Notes under the pieces: model-generated
Seen by the model: the letters and a program-made list of their open reading frames with translations, nothing else
What the model was told of the DNA's origin: nothing
Databases searched by the model: none
Source of the DNA: a virus
Lineage: Duplodnaviria; Caudoviricetes
IMG/VR virus record: IMGVR_UViG_3300025018_000196
Span: 1-50,472 of that record
Reading direction: 5' to 3' (one strand)
Length of the DNA: 50,472 nucleotides
Shown here: positions 32,997-50,472 of the stretch, in pieces
How the letters are laid out: each line of letters begins with the position of its first letter
Numbering within the stretch: position 1 is the first letter of the stretch
Position numbers and translations under genes: made by a program

Positions 32997-33033
32997 TGCG
33001 CAAGCGAGCGAGCAAGCGAGCGAGGTGAACGAG

Positions 33034-33249: not shown

Positions 33250-33551
33250 TGTCCGATACGAGGGTGAAGGTGATCACTCGTGCACCTACCCCGAAGGAAT
33301 TCGTGGAGACGTACAATTCCCTAATCGCAGAGAATCTGCGTCTCCATCGTAGGATCGAGGGGTTGGAGCACAGGTTGAAGATCGAGGGAGAACTCTACGC
33401 TACTCTAAGGGAGTCGTACGAGTTCTGTCTGAGAACTGTCCAGCTTGTGTTCAGGCAGACGGGATGGCTCCCATCTGCGTTCATTGATGAGGTGAAGAAC
33501 CCGCCTCCCAATATCAATTGGAAGAAGGCGAGGATTTCTTTCGACGAATAG
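33246..33551 (+). CDS. hypothetical coiled-coil protein
   Basis: 101 aa, GTGA overlap with the upstream gene. Confidence 0.65.
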   Translation: MMSDTRVKVITRAPTPKEFVETYNSLIAENLRLHRRIEGLEHRLKIEGELYATLRESYEFCLRTVQLVFRQTGWLPSAFIDEVKNPPPNINWKKARISFDE

Positions 33552-33947
33552 GGGCGACTGGCCCCCTTGCCAGGTAGATAGGAGCGCATGCCCCTTTGGC
33601 AAATGCTCCCTAACCTGGCGAAGCGCTGGCGGAGGGGTGGGTGGGACTGATGTGGTTGTGTGCCGAAGGACTGAGGACTAGTTATCTTTAGTCTTGAGGG
33701 GCATGACCACGACAGCAGAGAGTGCTGACATAGGGTATAGATGGAGCTGTATGGCTCTGTGAGCGGGGGTAAGGGCCACTGGTACCTACCTACCGGTCCC
33801 CTAGATAAACTCCGGAGGGAAGGGCTTGTGTGCCGCCTCTGCAGGGCGTGAGCGTACAAGTACGGGATAGTCAACGAGACTCGGCACATCCAGGACTTTC
33901 CAATAACCTTGGGTCGTCGCGAAGACTGGATGTGTCGGGTCTCACCA
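33552..33947 (+). ncRNA. structured non-coding block A, ending in a 72-nt hairpin with 3' ACCA
   Basis: no credible ORF; several long stems with G-U pairs. Confidence 0.55.
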
Positions 33948-33949
33948 TT

Positions 33950-34032
33950 GCCCGAGTGGTGAAACGGTAGACACCGGGGACTTAAAATCCCCTGCCATTG
34001 GCATGTGGGTTCGACTCCCGCCTCGGGCACCA
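33950..34032 (+). tRNA. tRNA-Leu (anticodon TAA)
   Basis: GCCCGAG/CTCGGGC acceptor, GGGGA-CTTAAAA-TCCCC arm, long variable arm, GGTTCGACTCC, encoded CCA. Confidence 0.95.
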
Positions 34033-34041
34033 TCGGATAAC

Positions 34042-34118
34042 GGGCCAGTAGCTCAGCTGGTTAGAGCAGTCGACTCATAATCGATTGGTCCTAGGTTCAA
34101 GTCCTAGCTGGCCCACCA
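34042..34118 (+). tRNA. tRNA with CAT anticodon, most likely tRNA-Ile2 (lysidine, reads AUA)
   Basis: full cloverleaf with CCA; CGACTCATAATCG arm as in E. coli ileX; lacks initiator features. Confidence 0.85.
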
Positions 34119-34322
34119 TATTAGCCGTCAACCATAGCTACGGCACCGTAGAAAGGGTACCCTTAAGCTATAGGGGTGTTACCTGAGTAGGTGAAGTAAG
34201 CGGAGGGTCAGCATTCGTAGCGTAACACATGTGGGTTATGCCCATAGGAGGTGTATCATGTAACACTTATCGTCTACCTCAATCCCCTTGTATAAAAAAG
34301 TGTCCAGCCCAAGAGTGGCATC

Positions 34323-34354
34323 GGGCCAGGTCACGCTAATTGTCTGGCCCACCA
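34323..34354 (+). ncRNA. minihelix copy of the tRNA(CAT) acceptor stem with ACCA
   Basis: GGGCCAG-GTCACGCTAATTGT-CTGGCCC-ACCA. Confidence 0.5.
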
Positions 34355-34440
34355 TATCACCTCGCTATCCTTAACAGGACGCGGGGTATTGGTGTGCCCA
34401 CTACTTGGTGGTCGATCAATCAACAATCGAGGTGAGTACC

Positions 34441-34743
34441 ATGAGAAAGTGGTTCAGGAAGAAAGGTGGAACACCCCCCTTCGTGGATGACAAGGGCTCC
34501 GACAACAACCTGCACGTGGTGGTGCAGGTGTTCGAGGGTGAGGCTCCCGACGCCCGAAAAGTGCAGGAGTTCAGTGTGAACTTCCTGTCCAAGAAGGGAC
34601 GCATCAGCATGCGCAAGACGGCACACTGGGCCATGTGCTCGGGGTATGTCATGCGTACCGTGCCGAAGCGGATCCCGAAAAGCGTGTGGGATCAACGGCA
34701 CGTCATGCCGGAAGCGGACGAGGAGCTGCGCCATGCCAGTTGA
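34441..34743 (+). CDS. hypothetical protein
   Basis: GAGGTG RBS, MRKWFRKK start, 100 aa. Confidence 0.7.
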   Translation: MRKWFRKKGGTPPFVDDKGSDNNLHVVVQVFEGEAPDARKVQEFSVNFLSKKGRISMRKTAHWAMCSGYVMRTVPKRIPKSVWDQRHVMPEADEELRHAS

Positions 34744-35008
34744 GATCAATCTCACCATCATAGGTGTGGTGTGTCTGTTGGTCAGCATCATGTTCGTGTA
34801 TCAGCTGGGCATGCTGCTGTTCGAGATCCTGCTATCTGTCGATGAGACTCGAGGGTGGATCAGTGCCCAGAAGTTGATCCCTCTCTCCGAGGTGCCGGCA
34901 ACTCAGCTCTTGATCAAGGAGCTCAGGTTCTTCACCGCCATCGGCCTCGTTCCGCCTGCTGTCGCAGCAATCGGATTCTTCTTCGTCTTCTGGGTGACGC
35001 TGTCATGA
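34733..35008 (+). CDS. small two-helix membrane protein
   Basis: GAGGAG RBS; two long hydrophobic segments. Confidence 0.7.
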   Translation: MPVEINLTIIGVVCLLVSIMFVYQLGMLLFEILLSVDETRGWISAQKLIPLSEVPATQLLIKELRFFTAIGLVPPAVAAIGFFFVFWVTLS

Positions 35009-35277
35009 TGAAGATGCAAGAGGTACACTACATTCCCGAGAATGGGAATGATCTGTGGATCTTCCTGGTCGAGCACACCAGGAACGGGGGCGTCGTCAAG
35101 GTGGGGAGCACGAGTGTCACCCGTGCCACCGACGATGGGTTCGTGTTGATGACGGACTTGGGAGGGGTACACTGCACCTCCACGCAGATGATGTCACGTT
35201 GTCGCACGATCTTTCAGGAGAGGGAGACCATCAAGGTCACCGTTCGTGAACCGGTGCCGGGACAGGAGGAGAAGTAA
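35005..35277 (+). CDS. hypothetical protein
   Basis: ATGA overlap, 90 aa. Confidence 0.65.
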   Translation: MMKMQEVHYIPENGNDLWIFLVEHTRNGGVVKVGSTSVTRATDDGFVLMTDLGGVHCTSTQMMSRCRTIFQERETIKVTVREPVPGQEEK

Positions 35278-35278
35278 C

Positions 35279-35473
35279 ATGGGCATGCGATGGGAAGAAA
35301 CGGAGAGGCAGATGGTGGAACAGTGCCTCTCCTGGGTAGCCGGTATGCCGTGGGAGGAAGGGGAGTTTGGGCTGCTCCTCCCCACGACAACCACCATACA
35401 CGAGGATGCCGAAAGGCTTCCTCTCGAATGGTCGGATGATGTGGAGCAGCACTTCGTTCTCTCCAACAACTGA
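35279..35473 (+). CDS. hypothetical acidic protein
   Basis: AGGAG RBS, 64 aa. Confidence 0.55.
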   Translation: MGMRWEETERQMVEQCLSWVAGMPWEEGEFGLLLPTTTTIHEDAERLPLEWSDDVEQHFVLSNN

Positions 35474-35905
35474 ATGGCTACGGCTAAGGGTAGGTACGCT
35501 TACCCTTACCCGTGTCCATGCGCCCGTTGGGATCAATGGACAGTAGCGTATACGTGTCCACCCTATCGTAAGTAGGGCACCTATGTGGTTGCGTATCGCC
35601 GCAAGCGTTAGCGCTTATTAGGAGCCCGAGCAAACGGCGGTCCCTAGGGATGCACGAACCGGACCTCGGGCGGCGTTGAGGCAAGGATGCCCGTTAACGT
35701 GGGACACAGAGAGGCTAAGCTTCCGGTCTCTCCACACTGCAGACGATATGATATCGGCCAAGACATGGCTGATGGATGTGATGATGCGGTGCCGGCAGTT
35801 CACTCCAGCCGGAACTCCTGGCCTACCCTAAGGGGACGGCCATGCAGGTTCGAATCCTGCCGCTCTATCGAGCGTGGTGGAATAGCGTGGAAACTCCACA
35901 CCCAT
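35474..35905 (+). ncRNA. structured non-coding block C, ending in a circularly permuted tRNA-like unit
   Basis: serial hairpins, then T-arm 35844-60, closed stem 35861-74, D-arm 35877-99. Confidence 0.6.
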
Positions 35906-36171
35906 GCGCGGCATACACGAGGAGACAGTGGACAAGAAGCCAGACTGATTCTGTTTCGATGGAGATACCGACGTGAGTAACTCGGTACGTCTGCAACATG
36001 GCGTGCCTTGTGAACAGTTCGTAGGTACCATGATGTCCAGCGTGGGAGTACAGTGCGAGGGCACTCACGACTGGAGCCACATCAAAACGTACATCTCCAA
36101 GGCCGGGGCGCTTGCCCCGATTCTGCGAGCGGGGCGGCGCCGTCACTCCAATCCTCACTGGAGAATACGGT

Positions 36172-39147
36172 ATGGCCGTAGCCAAGAGGGAGAGAGGGGC
36201 GTCGGAGGCCAGTCCGCCGATATCCCCTCCGTTACTGACAGGCAACTCGCGGATCAAGGTACCGAAAAAGACGAGGAAGGTTGACGTTTCCAGCGTTGAC
36301 GACCCTCTCAATCTGTCCAACGTAACAGCCATCTCAAAGGTGTTGGGCAGAGGGTCATTCAATTCGGATGTGGAGTACCAGCTCTATCTGGAATTCCGCA
36401 AGCTGAAGGTGCCTTCATTGCCGAGGGTAATCGAGGAACCGGTGACTCCAAATGCAAAGGTACTCCCCTTTGCACCGCCAGCCTCGACGAGCAAGGACGA
36501 TGCCATCCGTTACCAGCGGTGGCTAGTCAACAATCAAGCAGTCGGATACACCAAGGGTGTGAAGACTGCAGGTACCATCCTGGTTGATTACATTGACCGG
36601 GATGGATCGAGTCGGACTCTTCAGGTGAATCATCGGGTTGATACCCCGGTGAATCACTACGACAAGCACTACCTTGTCTCCCCGCCAGGAAGAATCCCTT
36701 TCTGGATGGAGATACCGGATGTGCCTTACTCCATGGTGACATGGGTGGGGTACACTCACAGCCAGGCACCCGCCGCTTGGATAAAAGCCAAGCACCGTGC
36801 CACGGCGAGGCGTGAGAAGTCAGTTCGAAAAAGAGGGAAGCGGAATTCTCATCCCTCTACCGCTGGAATGTATACCTATCAAATGGGAGACATGAAGACG
36901 GTACTCCGCACGATCACTCCATCGTTGAGGTGGTTCTTAGACCACCCCGATGGTACCGGTATGTTCCGGGACTCGGCATATCCTAACGGGTACGTCGACA
37001 ACCCCGATCTTACCGGGATTTGTGAGTCTACTGAGGGGGACAATCCAATATCCCCTCAGCTTTGTCCCAGCTGTGATAGAACCGCAGTTGTCCGGGGCAT
37101 GCTCGTTCGTGACAAGGATGGGCATGTGACCGAGAATATGAGCACGAAGTACGTGTACTGTGCGTGCTGCGATTGGCGGAAAGAATCAACAATGGAGCAC
37201 GTTGCTCGTCCGATTCAACAAGAGCGTGAGAACGCTCATGTCCGTGATGAACCTCTCAATTCGAAGTTAGTCACGGTGGACGAGGAAGAGGTGGCACGTG
37301 AGCCATCGGAGTTCCACTCCTCCAACCACGCCCGACTGGGGTATTGCACCAAGTGCAAAGAGAATGGGTTTGCATACAACCTTCGTCTGAGCGAAGGGCA
37401 TACCTACTTTGCGTTTGTGTGCGGTCACTGTGGTGCAGAGGACCAGTGGGCGCCAGCTTCCCGCCCTTGGGTTGAGTCATCTCCGGATGAAGAAGAGCCC
37501 GTATCGTTGCAGGTTCAAGAAGGGAATGACTGCCTGGTATGTGGAGGGCCGGTTGAAGAAACAACCTTCAGCCACTCTCATTGTGCATACTGCGGCTTCT
37601 CTGAATCTCTGGCCAAGAACGACAGTGCATGGAGTTCGGAAGACTCAACGATCAACTTGGAAAGACAGGTGATCGATCTCACCAATCCGATACAAGCAGA
37701 GAAAAACCTGGCGGCTTATCGAGAGCTGATCAGATCTCAATTGCTGGACATCATGGAAGTCGAGGCGGAGATGCGCATCAAGCGCATGTGTATTGAGGTA
37801 GGCATCCCACCTGCCAAGGCTGAATGGTACTGCAGACCTGAGAACCAGGCTGCATTCCGTGTGGCCTACGGGTTTCGAAGGATGGGCCTTGATGCTCAAC
37901 ACTCCATCAAGATGCACCGTGAGATCGGATGGGTGAGACGACGGAGAGGTACGGTCAATGCCTCCCGAAGCGGGGCAAGTGACAGGAAGATACAGTTCCT
38001 CCTGAATCGCTCGCTGCGGCTTCAGAAGAAGTACGCGTTCGATCATGATCGAGACGTCGTGGTTACCAAGCGATGGTTCGGAGAGTACGCCGGGACTCCG
38101 GTCCCTGATCCGGGAGATTTCCACCCCATGGATTTGAGGTGGCGATTGGGCACCCGGTTCACCAAGCTACTTGCTCTCACTCCAGCATCGAATCGTGGAA
38201 AGGGTACGGTGATGCGGTACGTATTCCACAATGCAGGGCCAATGGCTGGCACAGTGTTGTCTGTCCACCTGTACAAGATGTTGGCCAAGATAACCTACCT
38301 CCGTAGTAAGTGGTTCTTGCTTACGGAGTACGGTGAAACTTGGGACCAGTACTACAATCGCTGGGAGAAGTACGGTAACTACCGTATGGAATACCCATTA
38401 GATCCACCGCTGCCAGCCTCTATTGCTCGGTTATCCCCCGAGTACTACAACAAGCTGAGTAGATTCCAAAGGTGGGTCATTGACTGCGGCGACCCGAACT
38501 CTCAGAAGACGGTCACTCGCCCTACATTGAGGGCTGTTGCTCGTCAGAAGAGACTGGAATCCGAGAGGATCAGGAAGTTGGGAGCGCGGACCATTCGTCA
38601 GAAGATCTCTGACGGATGGAATGAACTCAAGGATAGTGTAACACGGGAGCAATCCTTCCGTCTGTCCTTTGCTACCATCGACAAGTGGAAGTACCGCTTC
38701 CGCACTGACGAAGAGAGGTTGGACTATTGGCCATCACTGACGTTCATGAACTGGATGGCAGCGGCTGAGGATCCCACCCTTCAAGCTCACCTTCGTCACA
38801 AAGACTGGCTCAAGCGACTGCAACTGCGCTTGAATGACCTGCCTCTTGATGAGGACGGTGCCAGCCCCGGAGAGCAAGGCAGCCCGGGCAATGATGAGGA
38901 GAAGGAAGCGATCATTACCGCTCAGTCCTACTCCGCTCCACCGGAGCCGAAGCCGGTGACCAACGAAGAAGATGCGAAGAAGATTCGTGATCTCACCGAT
39001 TCAATCTTCCAATATGCACATGCCCTGATAAAGCACGGTGTGGGAGAACGTCGGGTACGTGAAGATGCGCGCAACCTTGAGCGTTATCTGAACAATGTTG
39101 TCATCATCGGCGAAGAACGGCCCGAGATAAAAATCGTCATTCCCTGA
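36172..39147 (+). CDS. 991-aa orphan protein with three zinc ribbons
   Basis: GGAGA RBS; CPSC/CACC, CTKC/CGHC and CLVC/CAYC pairs. Confidence 0.8.
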   Translation: MAVAKRERGASEASPPISPPLLTGNSRIKVPKKTRKVDVSSVDDPLNLSNVTAISKVLGRGSFNSDVEYQLYLEFRKLKVPSLPRVIEEPVTPNAKVLPFAPPASTSKDDAIRYQRWLVNNQAVGYTKGVKTAGTILVDYIDRDGSSRTLQVNHRVDTPVNHYDKHYLVSPPGRIPFWMEIPDVPYSMVTWVGYTHSQAPAAWIKAKHRATARREKSVRKRGKRNSHPSTAGMYTYQMGDMKTVLRTITPSLRWFLDHPDGTGMFRDSAYPNGYVDNPDLTGICESTEGDNPISPQLCPSCDRTAVVRGMLVRDKDGHVTENMSTKYVYCACCDWRKESTMEHVARPIQQERENAHVRDEPLNSKLVTVDEEEVAREPSEFHSSNHARLGYCTKCKENGFAYNLRLSEGHTYFAFVCGHCGAEDQWAPASRPWVESSPDEEEPVSLQVQEGNDCLVCGGPVEETTFSHSHCAYCGFSESLAKNDSAWSSEDSTINLERQVIDLTNPIQAEKNLAAYRELIRSQLLDIMEVEAEMRIKRMCIEVGIPPAKAEWYCRPENQAAFRVAYGFRRMGLDAQHSIKMHREIGWVRRRRGTVNASRSGASDRKIQFLLNRSLRLQKKYAFDHDRDVVVTKRWFGEYAGTPVPDPGDFHPMDLRWRLGTRFTKLLALTPASNRGKGTVMRYVFHNAGPMAGTVLSVHLYKMLAKITYLRSKWFLLTEYGETWDQYYNRWEKYGNYRMEYPLDPPLPASIARLSPEYYNKLSRFQRWVIDCGDPNSQKTVTRPTLRAVARQKRLESERIRKLGARTIRQKISDGWNELKDSVTREQSFRLSFATIDKWKYRFRTDEERLDYWPSLTFMNWMAAAEDPTLQAHLRHKDWLKRLQLRLNDLPLDEDGASPGEQGSPGNDEEKEAIITAQSYSAPPEPKPVTNEEDAKKIRDLTDSIFQYAHALIKHGVGERRVREDARNLERYLNNVVIIGEERPEIKIVIP

Positions 39148-39486
39148 CGAAGTGGCGGCAAATTAGCTCGGCCTTTCTGACGAGTACCCGTCCGGATTGA
39201 AACCCCGGGCGGGAGTCAGGTGCAAATCCTGATTCAGAGGTGAACCTCCAAGCTTCATCTGGTCGAGGGAAATCTAGGTTCGAATCCTAGCAGGAGCCTG
39301 GCGCAGCTCATGTCGGCAATTGAGTCCGAGGTACATTCGCAGAATTCGGTTGAATAAAGCAAATCAATGCGCGTCTTGGGATGGGCTACACAAACCGGGC
39401 CCGAGGCTAAGAAGACATGATACTCTGCGGTACACTCGCAACCTCGTAGGAGGTACCACACCACACTAGTTGAAGAGGATTTTGCA
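39148..39486 (+). ncRNA. structured non-coding block E with tandem partial tRNA modules
   Basis: D-arm + GAA anticodon arm + T-arm-like (39164-39232); D-arm + T-arm (39251-39290). Confidence 0.6.
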
Positions 39487-40146
39487 ATGTCAAATTCCCC
39501 CGGTCGTGGCATCCGAATCGCCCGACGTACGATCTACCGGGTCAAGATGAGGCCCGGCCCAGGGGAGAAGTCGGTACCATGGTACCAATACAGGGTGCTC
39601 GGCTTTCTTTGGTGGAGATGGCATACTCCGGTTGCCAATAACCTCAATGCACTGCGGCTAAGAGGTGTTACACTCATCGCAGAACTTGAGGAGTTGAAGC
39701 CAAAGCTCGCCGAAGCCGAGCGCGAAGTCAAGCAAGCAATTGCTGACGTCCAAAACTCCACACTGGGTGTTGTTTCACATCCTTTCGAAGCGGACTGGGC
39801 ACCTCGAGTGCCGGCTATCCCTGATGCCGAGAAGGCCTACAAGGAATCCATAACTTCCCTCGGGAAGCTTCGTGGGCTCCGGTCCAGGGCTAGTCCCCGA
39901 TCCGTTGAGGAAGCAACTGCATCCACCTACCTCCCATCGGACAGGCTTCTTCAAGGATTCTACAATCGTGAGAAACTTGGAGAAAACTACGATCATGTGA
40001 TCGATTTCAAACCTGAGAGGGAGCAGCAACAGCAGCAAGGTAGGAAGAATCGGGGTCGAGGTCAAAACAACAATCAGGGAGGGTCCAACTCGGGTGCAAA
40101 CTCGATCACTATCGCTCTCCCAGGCGAGGATAACAGTAGCAATTAG
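39487..40146 (+). CDS. hypothetical protein with coiled coil and Q/N/G-rich tail
   Basis: 219 aa, GAGGA RBS. Confidence 0.75.
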   Translation: MSNSPGRGIRIARRTIYRVKMRPGPGEKSVPWYQYRVLGFLWWRWHTPVANNLNALRLRGVTLIAELEELKPKLAEAEREVKQAIADVQNSTLGVVSHPFEADWAPRVPAIPDAEKAYKESITSLGKLRGLRSRASPRSVEEATASTYLPSDRLLQGFYNREKLGENYDHVIDFKPEREQQQQQGRKNRGRGQNNNQGGSNSGANSITIALPGEDNSSN

Positions 40147-40272
40147 GATGGATAGTTCCAACATTGGCAGTCACTGGCCATTCCATCCAACCCTGTAGTC
40201 AGGGCTGAGGGTGTGACTCAGAGCTGGTCGCACCCTCCACCGTGACAATGGGTCACATACTGGAGAGAGCTA

Positions 40273-40857
40273 ATGGGTAGAACCCTACTCATCTGGGGTA
40301 CACTTGGCCTCGCCAAGTTGTTCCTTCCGAAGCCGAAGCTGGTGCCTTACACCGAGAATATCGAAATCACCATCCTCTGGCATCTTGTCAACGGTCCCGA
40401 ATTTATTCGGGATCTGGAAAGGATCTTAGGACGTGATTTCGATCTCAACAGTTGGTCATCTCCGCTTCGATTGGTTCGGGAGGTGAAGGATCTTATCACC
40501 AACAAGCCTGTTGGGTATCACGTGTACCCTCAGTCGGTGGATATGATCGTGACACAGGATCAACTTCGGGAACTTCGAAAGTTCTCCGGCCTGATAATCC
40601 TGCATCACCACTACCAAATGAAGGAGCCGGTATACTATGTGAATGGGAGATACTTGAATCCCATTCGCATGGGGATGTGCAAGCACTGCGGCATCGCGGA
40701 TGATGACGAAATGTGGTCAGAGGATGATGACGCGTATTACCACGGCTGTGGAAACTGCGATGCCGCCGAAGGCCAGGGTTTCACAAGCTTTCAAAACTTG
40801 TCTGCCAAGGAACGGCGGACATTCATGGCGAAGCTGCCGAATTACAAGGACGAATGA
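40273..40857 (+). CDS. hypothetical protein with C-terminal CxxC...CxxC zinc site
   Basis: CKHC...CGNC; GGAG RBS. Confidence 0.7.
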   Translation: MGRTLLIWGTLGLAKLFLPKPKLVPYTENIEITILWHLVNGPEFIRDLERILGRDFDLNSWSSPLRLVREVKDLITNKPVGYHVYPQSVDMIVTQDQLRELRKFSGLIILHHHYQMKEPVYYVNGRYLNPIRMGMCKHCGIADDDEMWSEDDDAYYHGCGNCDAAEGQGFTSFQNLSAKERRTFMAKLPNYKDE

Positions 40858-40878
40858 GGCAGTTCAACGGAGAGAACT

Positions 40879-41349
40879 ATGAAGTTCTTGGTGGAGATAT
40901 GGAACGGATACAGGTCCGTGGCAATGGGGGCACTCCTCGCCCTCTTCCTCTGCGTGGGCTGGGCAGTGACGTATGCTGCCTCGGCTCCGCCGGAGAGCCC
41001 GCCGGTCGGTGATTCCGATCCGGTGTTACTCGAAGAAGTGCCGGCTCCGGAGGAACTCGGGTTCGTGGAGAAGCGAATCCGATCCTTCTGCGTGGCGCAA
41101 GGTGCTCAGTACGAGGCTGAACTCCTCGAGCGGAGTGCCGATCTCGATGATCGGGAAGCCGATCTGGCCGATCTGGAGGAAGAGCTTCGCACTCGTGAAG
41201 CTCGAATCCAGGAGGGCAGGCTCATCATCATGAAGATGAAGCAGGCCTTCGAGGGGGAAGTGCAGAACTACGAACGGGTCGTGAACACGGTGCGTGGTCA
41301 CCTGCATACCCTGGATACCATCTCCGTCGGTGACGGGGAGGGTGGCTGA
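40879..41349 (+). CDS. membrane-anchored coiled-coil protein
   Basis: N-terminal hydrophobic helix, acidic heptad region. Confidence 0.75.
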   Translation: MKFLVEIWNGYRSVAMGALLALFLCVGWAVTYAASAPPESPPVGDSDPVLLEEVPAPEELGFVEKRIRSFCVAQGAQYEAELLERSADLDDREADLADLEEELRTREARIQEGRLIIMKMKQAFEGEVQNYERVVNTVRGHLHTLDTISVGDGEGG

Positions 41350-41624
41350 TGCTGCGCGACCTGCAACGGGTCGCCAATGACGGACGGAGGACGCTCGTTC
41401 TGAGCGTTCTCCTCCTCAGCGTGGCGGCATTCGACCGTGACTTCATCATCACGGTCCTCACCCTGGTGCTCTTCGCTTCCGTAACGATCTATGGTTACGT
41501 GTGGTACAACGAGTCACTGGGCCCATTCATCAACAAGGAGAACGACGATGCCACGAGGGAAGCGACGGGGGCCGATCTCGGACATCAGCATACCGGGGAC
41601 GGTGGTTCAGAACAGAGCGGGTAA
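41349..41624 (+). CDS. small membrane protein
   Basis: two hydrophobic segments, TGATG coupling. Confidence 0.65.
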   Translation: MLRDLQRVANDGRRTLVLSVLLLSVAAFDRDFIITVLTLVLFASVTIYGYVWYNESLGPFINKENDDATREATGADLGHQHTGDGGSEQSG

Positions 41625-41877
41625 CGCGGGGCAACAGACCATTGTTGCTCCGCCCCGCAAACTGAAGGCTGTTTGGAGAACACTCATCATGCTCTCCATC
41701 ATCCTCCCCACGGCTCTGTCCGGCTCCATGCTACTGGGTATGTATGACCCAGCGGCTTTCAATTCGGCAATTCCCGATCGGTTGCCGGATAACTTGGATT
41801 CGGTTGTGTGTACGACCATCTTCGTACTCGCGTTCTTCGGCTTGGTCTTCGTGTCTCAGCTGGAAACGAGCGACTGA
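41548..41877 (+). CDS. small two-helix membrane protein
   Basis: AAGGAG RBS before ATG 41548; two hydrophobic segments. Confidence 0.65.
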   Translation: MPRGKRRGPISDISIPGTVVQNRAGNAGQQTIVAPPRKLKAVWRTLIMLSIILPTALSGSMLLGMYDPAAFNSAIPDRLPDNLDSVVCTTIFVLAFFGLVFVSQLETSD

Positions 41878-41955
41878 ATGGGAGCCGCCCTTCGGGGCGG
41901 CCTCCCCTGTCGTGAGGCACTGATCTCCGGTGCCTGACCACAGAGGAGAACCCTC

Positions 41956-42165
41956 ATGTTTCTTTTCGTCATATTCGTACTCTTCAACGATGGCTCCTCT
42001 ACTTCCATCGAGAGGATGTACGATACGAGATTGGAGTGTGTCACCGCTCAGGTAAAACTGAGCGATCAGATCCGTAAGGGTGAGATCGACACATCCCATT
42101 GGGCTCCGGGTAGCTACTCGGAGTGCCACTTCAACCCCACAGTGAAGGAGACATTCGAACTGTGA
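41956..42165 (+). CDS. small protein with hydrophobic leader and two Cys
   Basis: GAGGAG RBS; MFLFVIFVLF leader. Confidence 0.65.
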   Translation: MFLFVIFVLFNDGSSTSIERMYDTRLECVTAQVKLSDQIRKGEIDTSHWAPGSYSECHFNPTVKETFEL

Positions 42166-42938
42166 TTGAAGTTGAGCTTGCTATCATCACTGCGGAGTTG
42201 ATCATTCCCGCATTGGTGGTGTTAGCAATACAGGCTCTCAGCGTGGAGATAGGAGAGCGAAGCCTGGCCTCTCCATCCTACTTCTCCTCGCCAGTCCACG
42301 CGTCAAGTGGCAGTGGGTACCTGAGTCGGGTACCGCCAGCGTGGTCGGAGCGTGACCCGGGCATTTGATCCAGGCTCCATGGGTGCGTTGGAGTGCCGTG
42401 TACTGCCAGCCACGGACAGTCTCGACCGAACATGGGGCCGGTAAATCCAGGGTAAGACCCGGGCAATTCAAGCTGGGCTGGCCAGCGCTTGGGCTCAACT
42501 CTACGGCTACCACGTGAAACTACGTAATGCTGACGGGCTGAACCAGTGAGGTAGCGTGCCACCTGTCGTTTGGGATGGTACGTGGGAGGTTTGATTCCTC
42601 TGTACAGTAAGCCGTCTACGGACGATATCTCCTGTCTAGGGGATGGGTAAGGTATCGCAGTCTATTACGTAGGTTAAGCGTTCATCCGTACCAAGGCTAA
42701 TACATGCGTGCTACTGCGTTCGAATCGCAGATCCCCCCGTGGGGGAGCGTTGTCATCCCGACCTGATAAGCGGGCACTGGCGGGTGTAGGTGCTGAGGTA
42801 GAAGAAGGTAGGTGCATCCCTTAAGACCCGGGTGGAACCCGTTAACATCTTACAACGGTGGTGCGGATTGACGACCCGCGTAAGGAAGGAAACTCCAGTC
42901 AGTCATCGACGCCAAACCTTTGGATTAGGTGAGAGCCT
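42166..42938 (+). ncRNA. ~770-nt highly structured non-coding block D
   Basis: long-range stem 42170-77/42493-500, many hairpins, two T-arm-like modules (42585-601, 42714-30). Confidence 0.6.
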
Positions 42939-43169
42939 ATGAAAGTCGATGCAAGAAAGGTGATTGGTGATGCTGTACTCCAGTTAATCACGATCATCCT
43001 ACTGATCTTCGTCCTTTGTACGCATGCAACTCTCTATGTTGCAGCAGAAAGTATGGACACCAAGCTGGATATGCTGGCCAACGACCTCGTCCAACCCCCA
43101 GGTAAGTCATACCTCGCCCTTTGGGCTGAGAAGTGTGGCACCTATGCTTGGCAGCCATGTAAGGAGTAG
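42939..43169 (+). CDS. small membrane-anchored protein
   Basis: AGGTGA RBS, one hydrophobic helix. Confidence 0.6.
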   Translation: MKVDARKVIGDAVLQLITIILLIFVLCTHATLYVAAESMDTKLDMLANDLVQPPGKSYLALWAEKCGTYAWQPCKE

Positions 43170-43216
43170 CCTACAGAGGACGTTAAACCAACAATCAACA
43201 GAAGGAGAGGCCAGGT

Positions 43217-43366
43217 ATGAAGAACCGAGCCGTACACCTGGCACTGAATCAACAGCAGTGCATGTTCAACGCCATGATGGCTGAGCTGCGAACAGCAGCG
43301 AATACATTGGAAGGCGAAGAGCTTCTTAATTCCATGCGGGAGATCGAGCAACGTCACTGCAATTGA
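43217..43366 (+). CDS. 49-aa protein not in ORF track (MKNRAVHLALNQQQ...)
   Basis: AAGGAGAGG RBS. Confidence 0.5.
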   Translation: MKNRAVHLALNQQQCMFNAMMAELRTAANTLEGEELLNSMREIEQRHCN

Positions 43367-43427
43367 CAAGGAGTTCAGCATGAAGGTGCTGGATGATGAG
43401 TTGGTGGAGCCCCCGTAATAGGGGCTC

Positions 43428-43493
43428 TGGGGTATAGTGTAATAGCACACTCAGCCTTGAACTGAGAGGTGTGGTTCGAATCCACTGCCCCAA
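43428..43493 (+). tRNA. degenerate tRNA-Gln(TTG)-like gene
   Basis: TGGGGTA/TGCCCCA acceptor with U1-A72, CTCAG-CCTTGAA-CTGAG arm, GGTTCGAATCC; lacks D-loop GG, U33 and CCA. Confidence 0.55.
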
Positions 43494-43577
43494 TGGTGAG
43501 CATGCACCATCTTCGCATGCATTCAAGAACGTACGTAAACTCCACGCACGTACTTCTGAAGGCCCTGTGATGAGGAC

Positions 43578-43781
43578 ATGAAAATGTTTTTCCTCACAGC
43601 CATCGGCGTCCCACCAGACATGTCAATGTGGCTGATGGGCCCGATGTTCGTCCAAGTCCGGGTGATGGTGTCAGCTGTTAATGCCCGATACCTGCAACGT
43701 GTGCAGCGGGAAAGGCTGTTATCCATGAGTCCCGGGGATCAGTACCGCTATCATCTGATGGCGGGTGGTTACCGTCCTTAA
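43578..43781 (+). CDS. hypothetical protein
   Basis: 67 aa, GAGGA upstream. Confidence 0.5.
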   Translation: MKMFFLTAIGVPPDMSMWLMGPMFVQVRVMVSAVNARYLQRVQRERLLSMSPGDQYRYHLMAGGYRP

Positions 43782-43793
43782 CTGGAGACCGCC

Positions 43794-44042
43794 ATGATCG
43801 GCGAACTTTGGAAGAAGGCGACCGAACACAGCGTTACCTGGTTCGCATCCGGGGTACAGACGTGGGTCACAGGGGCATTCCCCCTTGCCATCATGTATCC
43901 CAACTGGGCAATCGATCTCAGCGCCAAGGTTTTGGTTCCGGCCAAGATCTGGGTGATCGAGACTGGTTGGCCCGCTGCCTCCAATTACTTCGAGGCAGCG
44001 ATGGATGTGGTCGGGATGCTGAAGTTCGGCGCCACGGCGTAA
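43794..44042 (+). CDS. hypothetical hydrophobic protein
   Basis: GGAG RBS, 82 aa. Confidence 0.6.
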   Translation: MIGELWKKATEHSVTWFASGVQTWVTGAFPLAIMYPNWAIDLSAKVLVPAKIWVIETGWPAASNYFEAAMDVVGMLKFGATA

Positions 44043-44081
44043 TCAACGCCTGACCCTTTGAAGATTGGGTAGGAGGAAAGG

Positions 44082-44246
44082 ATGCATAATCCCAGGATTC
44101 TGGAAACCCTTAAGATGTTCGAAGCAATGACGAACAAGCACTCGGAAGATCTCTTCCGCAGTTCGATTGTTTGGGATTGCTTCCGTGATCCGGATGAGTA
44201 CATCGTCCAGGTTGCGGGTCGTCTAGTACTGGAGTTCAAGCACTGA
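44082..44246 (+). CDS. 54-aa protein not in ORF track (MHNPRILETLKMF...)
   Basis: AGGAGG RBS. Confidence 0.55.
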   Translation: MHNPRILETLKMFEAMTNKHSEDLFRSSIVWDCFRDPDEYIVQVAGRLVLEFKH

Positions 44247-44338
44247 TCCAATGTAAAGATCTTGCATTGGCTTGAACTACTGGAGACCTCCTTAGTCTAA
44301 TGAAAGTTATCATCTCATTGGACATAGGAGGTCACTAG

Positions 44339-46024
44339 GTGAAGACTGAACTTCAGAAAGGAACCTTTGTGGACAGGGGGCCGTGTACTAAGTGCACTAG
44401 CTCTGACGCAATGGCAGTGTATCGGCAGGACGACGGGTCCTACGATGCTACGTGTTTCTCGTGCGGGCACTATGAATCTGATTACGATTGGGACAAGCCA
44501 AGAACAGCTAACCAAGCTGAGGCAGGTGAGGCTAACGTACGCAGTATGTTTACAGTCTCCACATGCTCTATGTGTCCGCACTCCGCCTTCTCGGATCGAG
44601 GCATTCGCTTCGAGACAAATGAGTTCTACGGTGTACGCTCCGCCCTCAATCAGAATGACGGCAGTACCGTAGCAGCTCACCTCTATCCCTACTTCAAGGG
44701 AAATATTTTAACTGGCTATAAGAAACGTGATGCTACTGTTAAACGATTCACATCCATAGGAGATTGTAAGGACGTAGATTTATTTGGCATGCATTTGTTC
44801 TCAGAAGGGGGGCGTAGGCTATACATCACTGAGGGTGAACTTGATGCTCTTTCCTTGTTTCAAGTACTGAAGGATCAAGCAGGCCCTGAATACAAACACA
44901 TGAATCCTTGTGTTGTATCCCTCCCCCATGGTGCGCGCAACTGTGTTGCCGCATTGTCCCACAATAAGGACTTCATCTCTAAATTTGAGATGATAGTTCT
45001 TGTCTTCGACAATGATCAGCCAGGTCAAGAAGCATTAGAGCTGGCTTGTTCCATCCTCGATCCAACCAAAACATACGTTGCTAAGTTCAGCGAGAAAGAT
45101 GCCAACGCCATGCTCATGGCAGGCAAGGAAAAAGAACTCAAGTGGAGCTGCATTAATGCACAAATTTATACACCCTCTGGAATATGTACTGTTGACGATA
45201 TCTACGACGATGCAATGTCTAGCCCTAGTGTCGGCAAACCTTGGCCTTGGCCCTCTCTCACCCGTCTCACTTACGGTCGTCAGCCTGGCGTCTACGGCTA
45301 CGGTGCTGGGGTTGGTGTTGGGAAAACAGAAGTCTTCCACGAAATAATAGAGCACATAGTATATGACGAACAAAGTCCTGTCGGAATCTTTCTTTTTGAA
45401 GAAGCTAAAGAAAGAACTCTCCGAATCCTTGGAGGAAAGCGGATTAATAAGCCTGTTCATAGACCCGATTGTGACTTCGATGAACAGGAACTACGAGCTG
45501 CTCTCGATGAGCTTCGACTTCCAAACAAGGTCTACCTCTTTGACAATAAGAGAGGTGACCGAGACTGGAAAACAATTTACAATCAGTGTCGACATCTGAT
45601 TGTAGTCCACAATGTCAAGGACATCTTCATCGATCCCCTCACAGCAGTGATTGCTCAAGAAGAGAACACTGACCGCACTCTGCATGCCATCATGGATGAC
45701 ATGTCCCGCCTCACGCACGAACCATACAATGCATCTATTCATTATTCTTCTCACCTTAACGAGCCTAGCCGTGACCGTACTTCACATGAGGAAGGTGGAC
45801 GCGTTACTGAATCTCAATTCGCTGGCTCTCGTGCAATGGTTCGCTTCTCGGACTACATCTTCGGGCTCGAAAGAAACAAACAACATCCAGACGAAGTCTC
45901 ACGTAACACAGTAACCTTCCGTATTCTTAAGGATCGTATGTATGGTAGTGCAACAGGTGAAACTTTTGACCTGTTCTACAATCATACTACAGGTAGGATG
46001 ACGGAATTACAATCAGAATTCTAA
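44339..46024 (+). CDS. T7 gp4-like DNA primase-helicase
   Basis: CTKC..SD..CFSC zinc finger, ITEGELDALS and FDNDQPG TOPRIM, GAGVGVGKT Walker A, FIDPL, GLERN; AGGAGG RBS. Confidence 0.95.
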   Translation: MKTELQKGTFVDRGPCTKCTSSDAMAVYRQDDGSYDATCFSCGHYESDYDWDKPRTANQAEAGEANVRSMFTVSTCSMCPHSAFSDRGIRFETNEFYGVRSALNQNDGSTVAAHLYPYFKGNILTGYKKRDATVKRFTSIGDCKDVDLFGMHLFSEGGRRLYITEGELDALSLFQVLKDQAGPEYKHMNPCVVSLPHGARNCVAALSHNKDFISKFEMIVLVFDNDQPGQEALELACSILDPTKTYVAKFSEKDANAMLMAGKEKELKWSCINAQIYTPSGICTVDDIYDDAMSSPSVGKPWPWPSLTRLTYGRQPGVYGYGAGVGVGKTEVFHEIIEHIVYDEQSPVGIFLFEEAKERTLRILGGKRINKPVHRPDCDFDEQELRAALDELRLPNKVYLFDNKRGDRDWKTIYNQCRHLIVVHNVKDIFIDPLTAVIAQEENTDRTLHAIMDDMSRLTHEPYNASIHYSSHLNEPSRDRTSHEEGGRVTESQFAGSRAMVRFSDYIFGLERNKQHPDEVSRNTVTFRILKDRMYGSATGETFDLFYNHTTGRMTELQSEF

Positions 46025-46221
46025 TGAGAAAAGAAGAAAAGATTTACAATGAGGGATGGGATTCAGTAGGAGAATGCCTAGAGCGTGCTCCCTACGATGA
46101 TCACACCCCTGAGTATGAATACTTTGCCGAAGGCTTTGCTTACAGAGTAAGAGGCAGACTCCATAGGTACCACGGACAAGGGGATTTCTTTAGTGGAAAT
46201 GATATTCGATATCGAGACTAG
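46024..46221 (+). CDS. hypothetical protein
   Basis: 65 aa, TAATG coupling. Confidence 0.55.
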   Translation: MRKEEKIYNEGWDSVGECLERAPYDDHTPEYEYFAEGFAYRVRGRLHRYHGQGDFFSGNDIRYRD

Positions 46222-48019
46222 TCTTATCAAGGATTGGTTAGACCCCAAGCCTGATGAGTTCTTCTGCGCTGCTGCTTTAGTAGACGGTAAGCTCATGACA
46301 TTCACAGAGCTAGATAAATTTCTGGAGGTGTATGATAAGGCTGACACTATCATCGGGCACAATATCATTGCCTTCGATATCCCCGCTCTAGAGCACCTAG
46401 GAGCCTCTAAGAGAGCACCTAGTACCCTAGTACTGGATACCCTCGTAATGTCCCGCCTAGACTATCCTGACAGGCGTAGAGTGGATGGTTCAACTAAGAC
46501 CCCCCATTCTTTAGAGGCATGGGGAGAAAGGTTCGGCTTTCCTAAGGGTGACTTCCATGATTTCTCAGCTTACTCTGATGAGATGTTGGAGTATTGTGTC
46601 AGAGATGTGGAACTCACAAAGAAAGTATACGAAACTCTAGCCCCTGACATTATGAAACAATCCTTCATAGCTTCTCAGCTTGAACATAGGGTTGCAAACA
46701 TGATGGCTAAGCAGGCTAGGGCAGGGGTCTACTTCAACAGAGCCTTAGCTGATAAGGTTATCGATAAATTAGAACGACGTGTTGAAGACATAGATACACA
46801 ACTTAACGCAGAAGCTAAGACAAAGACAATCAACACAGGATCCTACCTGTCTCCCTTCAAGATTGATGGAACTCTGTCTATGCGTGTACTCAAATGGTGT
46901 GGAGTACATCGTATTGACCCTTCAACTATATGTGGCCCCTATGAATCTGTTGATTTCGTAGGTGTAGATTGGGGATCACCTGTTAAAGTTAAGACATTCT
47001 TACTGGAGCGTGGATGGAAACCCCAAGTATTTACAGACAAAGGCAGTCCCAAGCTGGAAAATCTGGAGGACTTAGGTACTCTAGGATCCTTGCTTACGGA
47101 GCGCAGCCTCCTATCGCACAGACTAGGATCAATCAAGGGACTAGTATCTCAAGTTCGAGAGGACAACACGATCTCAGCAGGAGCCAATCCTTGCGGGACA
47201 CCGACGGGAAGAATGAGACACAGCAGAGTAGTCAACATCCCCAAGGCCAGCAAGTACCCCAAAGACCACGAGAAAGCGGGGTCTCTGGTATGGATGGACG
47301 ACCCAGGGTTTCAGAAGCCCCTGTTTGGAACGGAGATGAGAGCCCTCTTCACAGCTAGACCAGGACGTATCTTGTTTGGCTATGATGCATCGGCCCTTGA
47401 GCTTAGAATCTTAGCGCACTATATCAATGATCCGGAGTACACACGAGTAATATGCCATGAAGATCCACATGTCTTCGCTCAGCGAGCGGCTGACCTACCT
47501 ACAAGAAATGACGGAAAGACTCTCAACTACGCTCTCATCTATGGAGCTTCAGATAAAAGACTCGGCTCACTTAAGGGCGGAGGAGCGAGAGATGGCGCTG
47601 CAATACGTAAGCGATTGTACGAGGCGATCCCAGGACTTGAAAGACTTGACTCGAGCGTTAAGACCGCTGCTAAAAAGGGCTATCTAAAGGGGCTAGACGG
47701 ACGTAAGTTGTATGTACGTGCTGATAAGAGCCCTCTTAACACCCTCATACAAGGCGGTGGTGCTGTGTCCATGAAGGCTATTGCTGTTGTGCTACAAGAT
47801 GAAGTGGAAAAGACTTTAAGTAATCAACTCTTTGAGTTACCGGCAATCAAAGTATTGGATTCACACGATGAAGGGCAATGGGATATCATAATCGAAATGG
47901 TTGATGCTATGACTAGGCACGTTCACTACTCCTTCGCTAAGGTAACTGAGATGTTCAATCTTAATTGCCCCTTAGTAGGTGAATGTAAAACAGGAATGAA
48001 CTGGGCAGAGACACATTGA
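46193..48019 (+). CDS. family A DNA polymerase with 3'-5' exonuclease (Tyr at the 762-equivalent position)
   Basis: FDIET, GHNIIAFD, YCVRDV exonuclease motifs; TGRM, DASALELR, KTLNYALIYG, HDE polymerase motifs. Confidence 0.95.
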   Translation: MEMIFDIETSLIKDWLDPKPDEFFCAAALVDGKLMTFTELDKFLEVYDKADTIIGHNIIAFDIPALEHLGASKRAPSTLVLDTLVMSRLDYPDRRRVDGSTKTPHSLEAWGERFGFPKGDFHDFSAYSDEMLEYCVRDVELTKKVYETLAPDIMKQSFIASQLEHRVANMMAKQARAGVYFNRALADKVIDKLERRVEDIDTQLNAEAKTKTINTGSYLSPFKIDGTLSMRVLKWCGVHRIDPSTICGPYESVDFVGVDWGSPVKVKTFLLERGWKPQVFTDKGSPKLENLEDLGTLGSLLTERSLLSHRLGSIKGLVSQVREDNTISAGANPCGTPTGRMRHSRVVNIPKASKYPKDHEKAGSLVWMDDPGFQKPLFGTEMRALFTARPGRILFGYDASALELRILAHYINDPEYTRVICHEDPHVFAQRAADLPTRNDGKTLNYALIYGASDKRLGSLKGGGARDGAAIRKRLYEAIPGLERLDSSVKTAAKKGYLKGLDGRKLYVRADKSPLNTLIQGGGAVSMKAIAVVLQDEVEKTLSNQLFELPAIKVLDSHDEGQWDIIIEMVDAMTRHVHYSFAKVTEMFNLNCPLVGECKTGMNWAETH

Positions 48020-48817: not shown

Positions 48818-49564
48818 ATGCACGCGTTAGTAGACTTAGACATCGTTTGCTACGAGGTAGCGAACTCAAAAGATGACCAAGGTGACCCATTAGATTGGGG
48901 CCTGGTCAAATGGAGAGTAGATGACAGGATACATCGCATCCTTGAAGAGGCTAAAGCCTCGACTTGGCAGGGATATCTTACAGGTAGTGGAAATTTTCGG
49001 GACAAGGTAGCCACGATAAAGCCATACAAAGGGCCACGTCGGCTAAAGGAAAAACCTTTTTGGTATGAGCAGATTCGAGAGTACCTTGTCTCTCATAGAT
49101 TAGCCCTCATGATCGAGGGGATGGAGGCAGACGATGCGATTGCGACCGAACATACTAGATGGCATACCTCTGGGTCAACTGTCATATGCTCCCGAGACAA
49201 AGATTTCAATCAGGTCCCGGGATACTTTTACAGCTGGCCCGGTTGGAAGGATGATGCTGGAACACTTAAGGAAATTACCCCCCTTGATGGTATTCAGTTC
49301 CATTATGTTCAACTACTTACAGGCGATAGTGCTGATAACATACCTGGTCTCTATGGGGTTGGGCCATCTAGTTCTCTGGTAAAACAAATCCATGAGATGA
49401 ACGATGAACTTGAGATGCTCAGGTTAGTAGTTGATCAATATGAAAAACGGTTCGGTTCTTATTGGTATCAATTCCTAGTAGAGAACGGAACCTTACTGTG
49501 GTTACTTAGGTCAGAGGATGACAACTATGAGCGACGATTGTCACAAATTTTGCACTCACTATGA
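48818..49564 (+). CDS. 5'-3' exonuclease (T7 gp6-like)
   Basis: ALVDLD, NFR, YKG.R, EADDAI, DKDF.QVPG, GDSADNIPGLYGVGP. Confidence 0.92.
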   Translation: MHALVDLDIVCYEVANSKDDQGDPLDWGLVKWRVDDRIHRILEEAKASTWQGYLTGSGNFRDKVATIKPYKGPRRLKEKPFWYEQIREYLVSHRLALMIEGMEADDAIATEHTRWHTSGSTVICSRDKDFNQVPGYFYSWPGWKDDAGTLKEITPLDGIQFHYVQLLTGDSADNIPGLYGVGPSSSLVKQIHEMNDELEMLRLVVDQYEKRFGSYWYQFLVENGTLLWLLRSEDDNYERRLSQILHSL

Positions 49565-49626: not shown

Positions 49627-50058
49627 GTGCGAGGCAACGCTACAAGAAAGACGAAGAGAGCGAAGTACAGGAGCGATCTAGAGCGGAAGATCGCGAAGAG
49701 TTTACACCAACGTGGTGTTAACCATGAATACGAAACTGAACGTATACCTTACACAGTACCAGCTGTTGTAAAGCATTATACTCCTGACTTCATAATCACC
49801 ACTAAAAGTCGAAAGAAAATATATGTTGAAGCAAAAGGTATCTGGGACGCTGCGGATCGGAAAAAGCACTTGCTCCTGCAAGCTCAGCGACCCGAGCTTG
49901 ACATACGATTCGTCTTCTCAAACAGTAACAATAGAATCTCCAAACTATCCCGGGTCACGTATGGTGATATTTGCATGGGACGTGGTAGGGGACAATACTC
50001 TGGAGTTTGTTGGAAATATTCTGACAAACGAATACCGAAAGAATGGTTAGAGGAATAG
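49627..50058 (+). CDS. T7 gp3-like endonuclease I, complete allele B
   Basis: YRSDLE, YETERIPY, YTPDF, VEAKG, IRFVF, IPKEWL; AAGGAGG RBS. Confidence 0.92.
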   Translation: MRGNATRKTKRAKYRSDLERKIAKSLHQRGVNHEYETERIPYTVPAVVKHYTPDFIITTKSRKKIYVEAKGIWDAADRKKHLLLQAQRPELDIRFVFSNSNNRISKLSRVTYGDICMGRGRGQYSGVCWKYSDKRIPKEWLEE

Positions 50059-50060
50059 AT

Positions 50061-50273
50061 ATGAACATTGAAACTAAACTGGTTGAACAAACGATTGCAC
50101 TGCTCGAACAATTTGTGTTTGAAAGTAACAGTGAACAACTCGAGGCAGAAGCTGCCGAAGTAATCACCCAACTGTACGATACGATGGAGGCAGACGATGG
50201 CTCGGAAAAGAATAGCAAACCTGAGATGGAAGCTAACACCGCTGAGGTACCTCCCATTCCTGAAAGTGCCTGA
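50061..50273 (+). CDS. small acidic hypothetical protein (allele B)
   Basis: homologue of 383-595. Confidence 0.7.
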   Translation: MNIETKLVEQTIALLEQFVFESNSEQLEAEAAEVITQLYDTMEADDGSEKNSKPEMEANTAEVPPIPESA

Positions 50274-50334
50274 GCTTCAGCACTGGAGTGACACTCAAAA
50301 CAAATGGCTAACTGTGCCAGTTGAAGAAGGTTAA
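50197..50334 (+). CDS. 45-aa hypothetical protein (allele B of 519-662)
   Basis: MARKRIANLRWKLTPLRYLPFLKVPELQHWSDTQNKW...; GGAGG RBS. Confidence 0.7.
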   Translation: MARKRIANLRWKLTPLRYLPFLKVPELQHWSDTQNKWLTVPVEEG

Positions 50335-50472
50335 GAAGATGTACGAACCACGCAATGCGTATGATGCAGAAGTAATACAGGACCTAGCTGAGAAACTCTT
50401 CTTTCTAATGAAGACATCAGATCCGCTGACTACCAATGTGTGGTTTGTATCTGAACTCAAGTTGATGGATGT

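Follow-up and report, generated by a model that had tools for sequence, protein, structure and literature searches.

A conserved gap upstream of the primase gene of an uncultured phage and the structured RNA predicted at the same place in its relatives

The DNA analysed here (the window) is the whole of a complete IMG/VR virus genome of 50,472 bases (50.5 kb; Caudoviricetes, record IMGVR_UViG_3300025018_000196) with a T7-like replication module, and the element in question is a gap of 773 nucleotides (nt) at positions 42166-42938, which lies 1.4-2.2 kb upstream of the primase gene on the strand of all its neighbours (+), and which an earlier note had read as a ~770-nt non-coding RNA. The analysis demonstrated that the stretch from ~42260 to 42938 is non-coding and that the gap occupies a conserved position in its clade, and covariation between related sequences firmly indicates that the same slot in the relatives encodes a structured RNA of ~650 nt without an Rfam family. 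A large structured RNA is a reasonable reading of the window's gap as well, because the same slot of the relatives holds this covariation-supported large RNA; the case for the window's copy rests on position and is a plausible one. We tentatively favour, at somewhat under an even chance, the reading that the gap is a fast-evolving, T-loop-bearing structured phage RNA locus, a version of a clade-wide slot RNA. What stands of the earlier proposal is that the ~770 nt are mostly non-coding; their 5′ ~200 nt overlap a probable small gene, and the fold drawn for them found no support.

A non-coding gap in a conserved position

When the primase was compared by tblastn with 50,697 phage records, the best match reached 39% identity only, so that this phage has no close cultured relative. 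Primase relatives in the protein collection were found at 77% (on contigs of up to 10.6 kb), ~60% (58-61%, on contigs of up to 50 kb) and 50-57% identity, and the DNA comparison covers the ~50-57% group, namely L002-L004 from IMG/VR and L007-L009 and L011-L013 from metagenomes; a locus search with the single primase sequence returned nothing, and with the primase alignment the loci matched were five viral ones and, of 456 metagenome loci, the 80 that were kept, among which none with the upstream flank was closer than 56% primase identity. The tblastx comparison indicated that the window segments 39535-39633, 43196-43357 and 44073-44255 and the primase gene occur in the same order in these loci. 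All nine relatives with the upstream flank (L002, L003, L004, L007, L008, L009, L011, L012 and L013) carry, just upstream of a small membrane-type open reading frame (ORF) and a conserved ORF of 49-51 amino acids (aa), an ORF-poor slot of ~0.5-0.7 kb, and T-loop-type hairpins are present in the slot of each of the nine.

The candidate lies in this slot, taken as ~1.2-2.2 kb upstream of the primase/helicase gene, as judged by tblastx synteny, by the 49/51-aa ORF and by its lack of coding signal. Its 3′ border is marked by a downstream membrane-type ORF of 76 aa on the + strand (42939-43169; codon score 0.28-0.34), which is the positional analogue, without sequence similarity, of L002 5769-5972. 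The synteny anchor is the conserved 49-aa ORF at 43217-43366 (+ strand), which has 32% identity to a 51-aa ORF of L002 (E 2e-11) and whose region matches L003 5982-6143 by tblastx. A T-loop-type hairpin, taken as a 5-bp stem with a 7-nt T[TG]CRANN-like loop on the + strand, is likewise found in the candidate, at 42714-42730, where the sequence forms the perfect T-arm CTGCG-TTCGAAT-CGCAG. Among the orphan T-arms of the clade, 13 of 30 have another hairpin starting within the next 3 nt downstream, compared with 125 of 600 random positions, and the T-arm at 42714 is one of the 13. Ten DNA sequencing runs and no RNA run were listed for the sequence, and the four DNA runs compared contain identical pieces only, with no variation that could be used. 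The phage occurs at aquifer and hot-spring sites.

The absence of a gene had been claimed by the earlier note for the whole candidate, and this holds for ~42260-42938 and fails at the 5′ end, where ~100-200 nt are overlapped by a probable small gene. That gene is a 68-aa ORF on the + strand (42162-42368), whose GTG start overlaps the TGA of ORF 41956-42165 and whose product, with one hydrophobic helix, is probably a small membrane protein. Its exact sequence is already a predicted protein in the protein collection, and no homologue of it was found among the four candidates returned by the protein search; an alternative 81-aa reading was rejected, the search with it having returned just the window's own 68-aa product. 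The codon log-odds of the 68-aa ORF are positive in 42140-42260 only, that is, in its first ~100 nt, and this coding-positive part spans the 5′ strand of the domain 1 proposed by the earlier note together with its long hairpin. L002 and L003 carry a positional analogue of this ORF that begins with GTG or ATG behind a GGAG ribosome-binding site, and no sequence similarity was found between the two. Between ~42260 and ~42920 the score stays at or below 0.15 log-odds per codon in every frame, compared with 0.2-0.5 in neighbouring genes. In the core non-coding stretch of 570 nt (42369-42938), which follows the loss of coding signal at ~42260, the + strand ORFs do not exceed 50 aa, and no gap-spanning ORF opens under TGA=W or TAG=Q.

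Structured RNA in the slot of the relatives

The slot RNA of the relatives was delineated on the + strand at ~5098-5760 of L002 and ~5110-5775 of L003, and it is likewise placed upstream of the primase gene in L004, L007-L009 and L011-L013, with a length of ~0.55-0.7 kb and several T-loop hairpins. Between L002 and L003 the primases are 91% identical and the gaps ~75%. The RNAalifold results indicated 192 predicted pairs, of which 36 were changed on both sides with pairing kept, a count that is favoured by the derivation of the structure from the same two sequences; sliding the 3′ partners by 1-3 columns left 1-5 such pairs, and none of 500 column shuffles reached the observed number. Since many of the pairs are G-U, the RNA would be read from the + strand. 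The predicted structure comprises ~26 helices with long-range closure, and among its hairpins are some in which the whole stem has changed and the loop is kept, as in GAGGGA-TGGAC-TCCCTC versus GCCGTG-TGGAC-CACGGC. The small ORF of L002 and L003 also contains a hairpin, at the same relative place as the window's hairpin at 42178-42228, with two compensatory changes (GTAGTG/CACTAC versus GTGATG/CATCAC).

A module of 69 positions, here called module X, which consists of a hairpin, the motif A.GG.GC and a T-arm, aligns in six relatives and shows compensatory change in 6 of its 12 pairs; the covariance model R1 built on it recovers its six training sequences at E 3e-9 to 9e-18. L011/L012 also show covariation in a terminal hairpin, which precedes the downstream ribosome-binding site. 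No Rfam family was matched in the relatives' loci, and the GOLLD and ROOL models had no match there at the gathering score or up to E 10. The ~650-nt RNA appears to be undescribed: no description of it was found in the full-text literature, the supplementary tables of PMC10690425, which may list sub-motifs, being outside that search. PMC10690425 is presented as a catalogue of more than 10,000 viral candidate RNAs, with motifs of 29-151 nt from IMG/VR.

The conserved covarying hairpin that stands immediately before the ribosome-binding site in the relatives would also suit a cis-acting part of the messenger RNA (mRNA), either a structured leader of the downstream membrane ORF or a series of processing or stability sites (tRNA-like punctuation that RNase P or Z would cut, RNase III-type hairpins) that separate the upstream and downstream messages, with no product acting in trans. 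Consistent with such a part, the window's gap lies on the same strand as all its neighbours and extends to the ribosome-binding site of ORF 42939; a search of 41400-43700 for sigma-70 promoters and intrinsic terminators gave none, and T-arm hairpins recur at gene borders in the early region (35844, 39216, 39274 and 42714). We nevertheless regard this explanation as unlikely: 570-680 nt is far above the need of a processing site or leader, and the ~26 helices of the relatives with their long-range closure resemble a folded domain, not a string of sites. Moreover, the pre-ribosome-binding-site hairpin, which has a GCCA-containing loop in the relatives, is not evident in the window, where the fold of 42860-42938 has a z-score (z) of -0.25 relative to shuffled sequences.

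The window's copy and its alternatives

Each motif that the earlier note had listed in the candidate was present at the position it gave, on the + strand. The closing strands of its proposed domain 1 are AGTTGAGC at 42170 and GCTCAACT at 42493, and those of its domain 2 are ACGGCT at 42503 and AGCCGT at 42610. Within the 68-aa ORF, a long imperfect hairpin, TTGCTA-TCATCA-CTGCGG ... CCGCA-TTGGTGG-TGTTAGCAA, extends over 42178-42228 on the + strand, with a minimum free energy (MFE) of -21.1 kcal/mol and z -2.63 (3 of 200 shuffles fold as well), and it fits an RNA of the + strand only, because it contains G-U pairs. A second hairpin, with a GGTACC...GGTACC apical stem, lies at 42296-42344 (+ strand; MFE -24.7 kcal/mol, z -2.51, 2 of 200 shuffles as good). 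These two hairpins, both in the 5′ third of the candidate, fold beyond chance, better than almost every shuffle. The motif GACCCGGG occurs on this strand at 42354, 42456 and 42825-42832, in agreement with the three copies counted earlier; the first two copies can pair, because CCCGGG is self-complementary, and they close a + strand sub-domain at 42353-42465 (MFE -51.0 kcal/mol, z -1.93, 7 of 200 shuffles as good).

The GACCCGGG palindromes bear equally on an element acting as DNA, for example an origin of replication or a region where a protein binds the three copies, upstream of the primase/helicase gene. Their clustering is significant, with three of the four copies in the 50-kb window (both strands) falling inside these 773 nt when 1.13 would be expected in the whole window, and two of them are embedded in a common 21-nt context; the distance of ~1.4-2.2 kb to the primase/helicase gene would be suitable, and in T7 the primary origin lies in an intergenic region at the early/middle boundary. 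An element of this kind is very improbable, given that the candidate has a GC content of ~55% with no AT-rich stretch, that the repeats are irregularly spaced (102 and 369 nt), that BLAST did not find the motif in the relatives' gaps, and that compensatory changes with many G-U pairs, as seen in the relatives, are a signature of RNA, not of DNA.

Two tRNA-like units lie 28 nt apart on the + strand of the candidate. The first is a 73-nt cloverleaf-like element with a TGG 'anticodon' (42537-42609), which ARAGORN calls at the relaxed thresholds -ps90, -ps85 and -ps80 only and which carries at its 3′ end the T-arm-like hairpin GGAGG-TTTGATT-CCTCT (42585-42601); the loop TTTGATT deviates from the T[TG]CRANN-like motif at its third position, where the canonical T-loop has C56. 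The second unit (42639-42736) belongs to a longer arrangement at 42639-42746, in which GGGGAT (within the motif GGGGATG at 42639) is followed by a 68-nt insert, the perfect T-arm of 42714-42730, ATCCCC (42731-42736) and the GC hairpin TCCCCCC-GTG-GGGGGA (42732-42746; -9.7 kcal/mol). This GC hairpin competes with the ATCCCC closure of the T-arm unit; the predicted fold of 42636-42740 retains both the closure and the T-arm, but at z -1.04 only. The presence of a tRNA was rejected in the candidate, where the Rfam tRNA model RF00005 (gathering score 29 bits) had no match up to E 10 and ARAGORN made no call at its default or at -ps95. The cloverleaf called at -ps90 is a hint and no more, as such a match arose in 22 of 1000 shuffles of the candidate and at three other non-tRNA places in the window, and matches obtained at -ps80 or with introns allowed were discarded as noise (441 of 1000 shuffles match at -ps80). 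The 73-nt element may be either a tRNA-like element or a decayed tRNA.

The latter possibility leads to the explanation that the gap is a non-functional spacer of decayed genes, chiefly a former small tRNA array that has left pseudo-tRNAs and drifted sequence. The two tRNA-sized units would be expected from such an array, the T-loop TTCGAAT of 42714-42730 is identical to that of the phage's own tRNA-Gln, and tRNA-Gln still stands 490 nt downstream of the candidate, with tRNA-Leu and tRNA-Met upstream; folding no better than shuffles and the absence of a homologue in the relatives' loci, both described below, would follow as well. This explanation is nonetheless rather unlikely. The relaxed ARAGORN match is at background and the Rfam tRNA model stays silent, a gap of comparable size is retained there by all nine relatives, and that of L002/L003 is under structural constraint, with partial support in L011/L012. 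It also leaves the clustered GACCCGGG copies unexplained, and a useless spacer of 570-680 nt is unusual in a compact phage genome.

Several results weigh against the reading of the gap as a version of the slot RNA, and to these belong the derivation of the L002/L003 structure from the pair on which it was scored and the T at the C56 position of the first T-arm-like hairpin. The 773 nt as a whole fold no better than dinucleotide shuffles, the outcome that the earlier note had itself set against its proposal (z -1.40, 2 of 20 shuffles as good; opposite strand z -0.68). Sliding 150-nt windows range from z -1.95 to +1.8, weaker than many flanking coding windows, and the pieces that hold the T-arm-like hairpin, the perfect T-arm or the proposed GGGGATG switch lie at z 0.0 to -1.2. 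For the fold in two domains, the G3-U pair likened to Ala/tmRNA and the 'switch', nothing was found in support apart from complementarity, and on our own calculation 773 nt should contain several long-range complements of 8 bp. At the level of sequence, blastn and nhmmer searches of the candidate against the relatives' loci gave no match, nor did profiles of the relatives' central region, module X and 5′ block find one in the candidate, nor did distant-mode blastn of 42100-43000 against the 50,697 phage records; scanning viral contigs for each of the two T-arm stretches as an exact pattern gave 0 matches. Model R1 had no match in the window at E<=10. A second model, R2, which describes the closing stem, T-arm and hairpin module common to window 35816-35885, L009 and L004, gave the candidate's T-arm 12.9 bits (E 0.21), compared with 13.4 and 10.3 bits for the bare T-arms at 39275 and of tRNA-Gln.

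Two of these lines of evidence were calibrated on known members of the slot. The covariation-supported RNA of L002 has local z-scores of +1.2 to -3.5, and the corresponding gap of L004 stands out as little; shuffle z-scores are therefore not decisive in this clade, and global and local z-scores were dropped as a discriminator after this control. Likewise, model R1 also misses the relatives L007, L009 and L012, and the nhmmer profile of the 5′ block, built from five relatives on GGTGGTA.CCTG..GG.TCC and, next to it on the 3′ side, the AT-rich strand of a long-range helix, also misses the known slot-RNA members L002 and L003 and finds L009 at E 0.1 only. An alignment of the relatives' RNAs covers most of the length only where the primases are 91% identical; at 77% it is reduced to blocks and at 55-67% to blocks of 15-54 nt, and the window's primase is 51-56% identical to those of all relatives. 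The missing similarity accordingly carries little weight, because at such divergence none would be expected and known members fail the same tests. Two other approaches were abandoned: a gapped GACCCGGGC...GACCCGGGC pattern gave at least 119 chance matches, none window-like by blastn or tblastx, and resemblances seen by eye, such as GGCGGGTGTAGGTGCT, were dropped because blastn, nhmmer and the profiles had given no match to the candidate.

Set beside the relatives' slot RNA, the candidate differs in that no common sequence block is found, module X is absent, and the GACCCGGG repeats occur in the window only. It resembles that RNA in its place relative to the membrane ORF, the 49-51-aa ORF and the primase gene, in strand and approximate length, in the small membrane-type ORF with a hairpin that precedes both, and in its T-loop-type hairpins, one of which is directly followed by a GC hairpin. 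We infer that the window's copy is a folded homologue of the relatives' RNA, and that it would be transcribed and processed. Under the slot-RNA reading, the RNA would be transcribed together with the flanking early/middle genes in a long transcript, and its tRNA-like parts, the 73-nt cloverleaf-like element and the T-arm with its acceptor-like closure and GC hairpin, could serve as a substrate for, or a mimic recognised by, the host's tRNA-handling machinery. RNase P, RNase Z and T-loop-modifying enzymes would then release and stabilise the RNA, which may act in trans as a tRNA-like decoy or as a scaffold. A broader proposal, which we hold more tentatively still, is that the candidate belongs, as a diverged member, to a hitherto undescribed class, whose large (0.55-0.7 kb) structured RNAs are rich in T-loops, keep a fixed early/middle position in uncultured phages with T7-like replication, evolve so fast that only structure and position survive, and act as a tRNA-mimicking decoy or a self-assembling scaffold on the scale of GOLLD and ROOL.

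Genome context and comparison with known RNAs

The replication module forms the end of a + strand arm that starts at ~29.7 kb, and the PHROG/Pfam scan placed in it, all on the + strand, a primase/helicase (44339-46024), a family A DNA polymerase (46193-48019), a 5′-3′ exonuclease (48818-49564) and endonuclease I (49627-50058). The 16 scanned ORFs upstream of the primase gene matched no PHROG or Pfam family at E 0.001; they include a 1011-aa ORF at 36112-39147, which has relatives in related phages and no Pfam, PHROG or PDB sequence match. A T7-type RNA polymerase was not recognised among the 21 scanned + strand ORFs, the - strand ORFs being outside that scan. The early part of the arm (~29700-44000) has a GC content of 53-66%, compared with 42-50% in the structural and replication genes. 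The ends of the record, 1-797 and 49679-50472, are direct repeats with an identity of only 78-99%, which suggests either that a terminal redundancy was assembled out of two strains or that the genome is circularly permuted and varies between strains.

Three tRNA genes (Leu, Met and Gln) were identified in the window by Rfam and ARAGORN. The tRNA-Gln gene (43428-43493) has just 66 nt, fewer than is usual in a tRNA of bacterial type. A copy of the 3′ end of tRNA-Met (TGGCCCACCATAT, 34106-34122) lies 238 nt downstream at 34344-34360, within the non-coding stretch 34119-34440, and could be the remnant of a recombination or insertion event. Directly after ORF 41491-41877, a perfect GC-rich hairpin, GGGAGCCGCCC-TTCG-GGGCGGCCTCCC, occupies 41880-41906 in a 150-nt window of z -5.2; it may be a processing or termination signal, and since it has no T-run, such a signal would be of a non-standard type.

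Two further small structured elements are common to the window and its relatives, so that conserved RNA structure abounds in the early region of the clade. One is a pair of abutting hairpins (39188-39235) in the gap 39148-39486 that follows the 1011-aa ORF, the first with TGAAA in its loop and the second with the 7-nt loop TGCAAAT; the pair recurs with the same shape and other stems at the same place in L002, L003, L004 and L009, where z is -2.5 to -5.7, compared with -4.6 for the window. The non-coding gap 35473-36111 has a core at 35816-35885 that consists of a TAAG-loop hairpin, the T-arm GCAGG-TTCGAAT-CCTGC, a second hairpin and a closing stem. This module recurs with compensatory stems in L009 and L004 (there in the primase-proximal gap) and partly in other gaps of L013, L008 and L009; it is matched by blastn (E 4.5e-5 and 0.002) and by model R2 as well, and the 19-mer ATGCAGGTTCGAATCCTGC is identical in the window, L008 and L013.

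Comparison of the candidate with known RNA families gave no assignment. The cmscan search of the whole window with Rfam 15 returned the three tRNAs only at the gathering score, and between 41800 and 43300 it gave three irrelevant weak matches up to E 10, with no match at E<=10 to GOLLD, ROOL, tmRNA, RNase P, group I/II introns, ribozymes, OLE, HEARO, raiA or YrlA; the families that the earlier note had singled out for this check (GOLLD, ROOL, tmRNA with its permuted form, RNase P and introns) were thus without a match. A tmRNA, for which a tRNA-like domain with a G3-U70 acceptor, a tag reading frame and pseudoknots would be required, was rejected in its permuted form as well: ARAGORN found none at its default and 0 in 42100-43000 with -m at the 80% threshold, and no Rfam model of the tmRNA clan matched at E<=10.

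The large phage RNAs GOLLD and ROOL, which we take to be RF01998 and RF03087, offer the nearest comparison in scale. They resemble the candidate as non-coding phage stretches of several hundred nt near tRNA genes whose function is unknown, and they differ from it in that neither covariance model matches the window or the relatives up to E 10, which bears out the earlier note's reluctance to assign the candidate to either; the candidate's secondary structure is, moreover, unsupported, and multimer assembly, too, is without support for it. In GOLLD, tRNAs are described as sometimes embedded in a linker (bioRxiv 10.1101/2024.12.08.627333), a feature loosely resembled by the candidate's tRNA-like units and by the T-arm inserts of the relatives' RNA. 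Large structured RNAs like GOLLD and ROOL are rare among phages and of unknown function, and a further class would help; if the proposal is true, its fixed position, its visible tRNA-like blocks and the many diverged copies available for covariation would give a handle on the role of such RNAs, and on whether phages use tRNA mimicry against host factors directed at tRNA.

Smaller RNAs with tRNA-like elements provide the other comparison, namely the bacterial YrlA and Y RNA-like RNAs, the stable RNAs that T4 encodes beside its tRNAs, and the t-elements of plant mitochondria. The candidate is much longer than all of these, and from YrlA it differs further in having no Rfam match (RF02553) in the window, the weak match in the relative L004 (18.6 bits, E 0.53) falling short of the gathering score of 69, and in that no TROVE domain or Rsr/Ro-type protein was recognised in the Pfam scan of the 21 + strand arm proteins. 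What it has in common with them is T-arm mimicry beside another hairpin, placement in a tRNA-bearing transcription unit, and the possible use of tRNA-processing enzymes.

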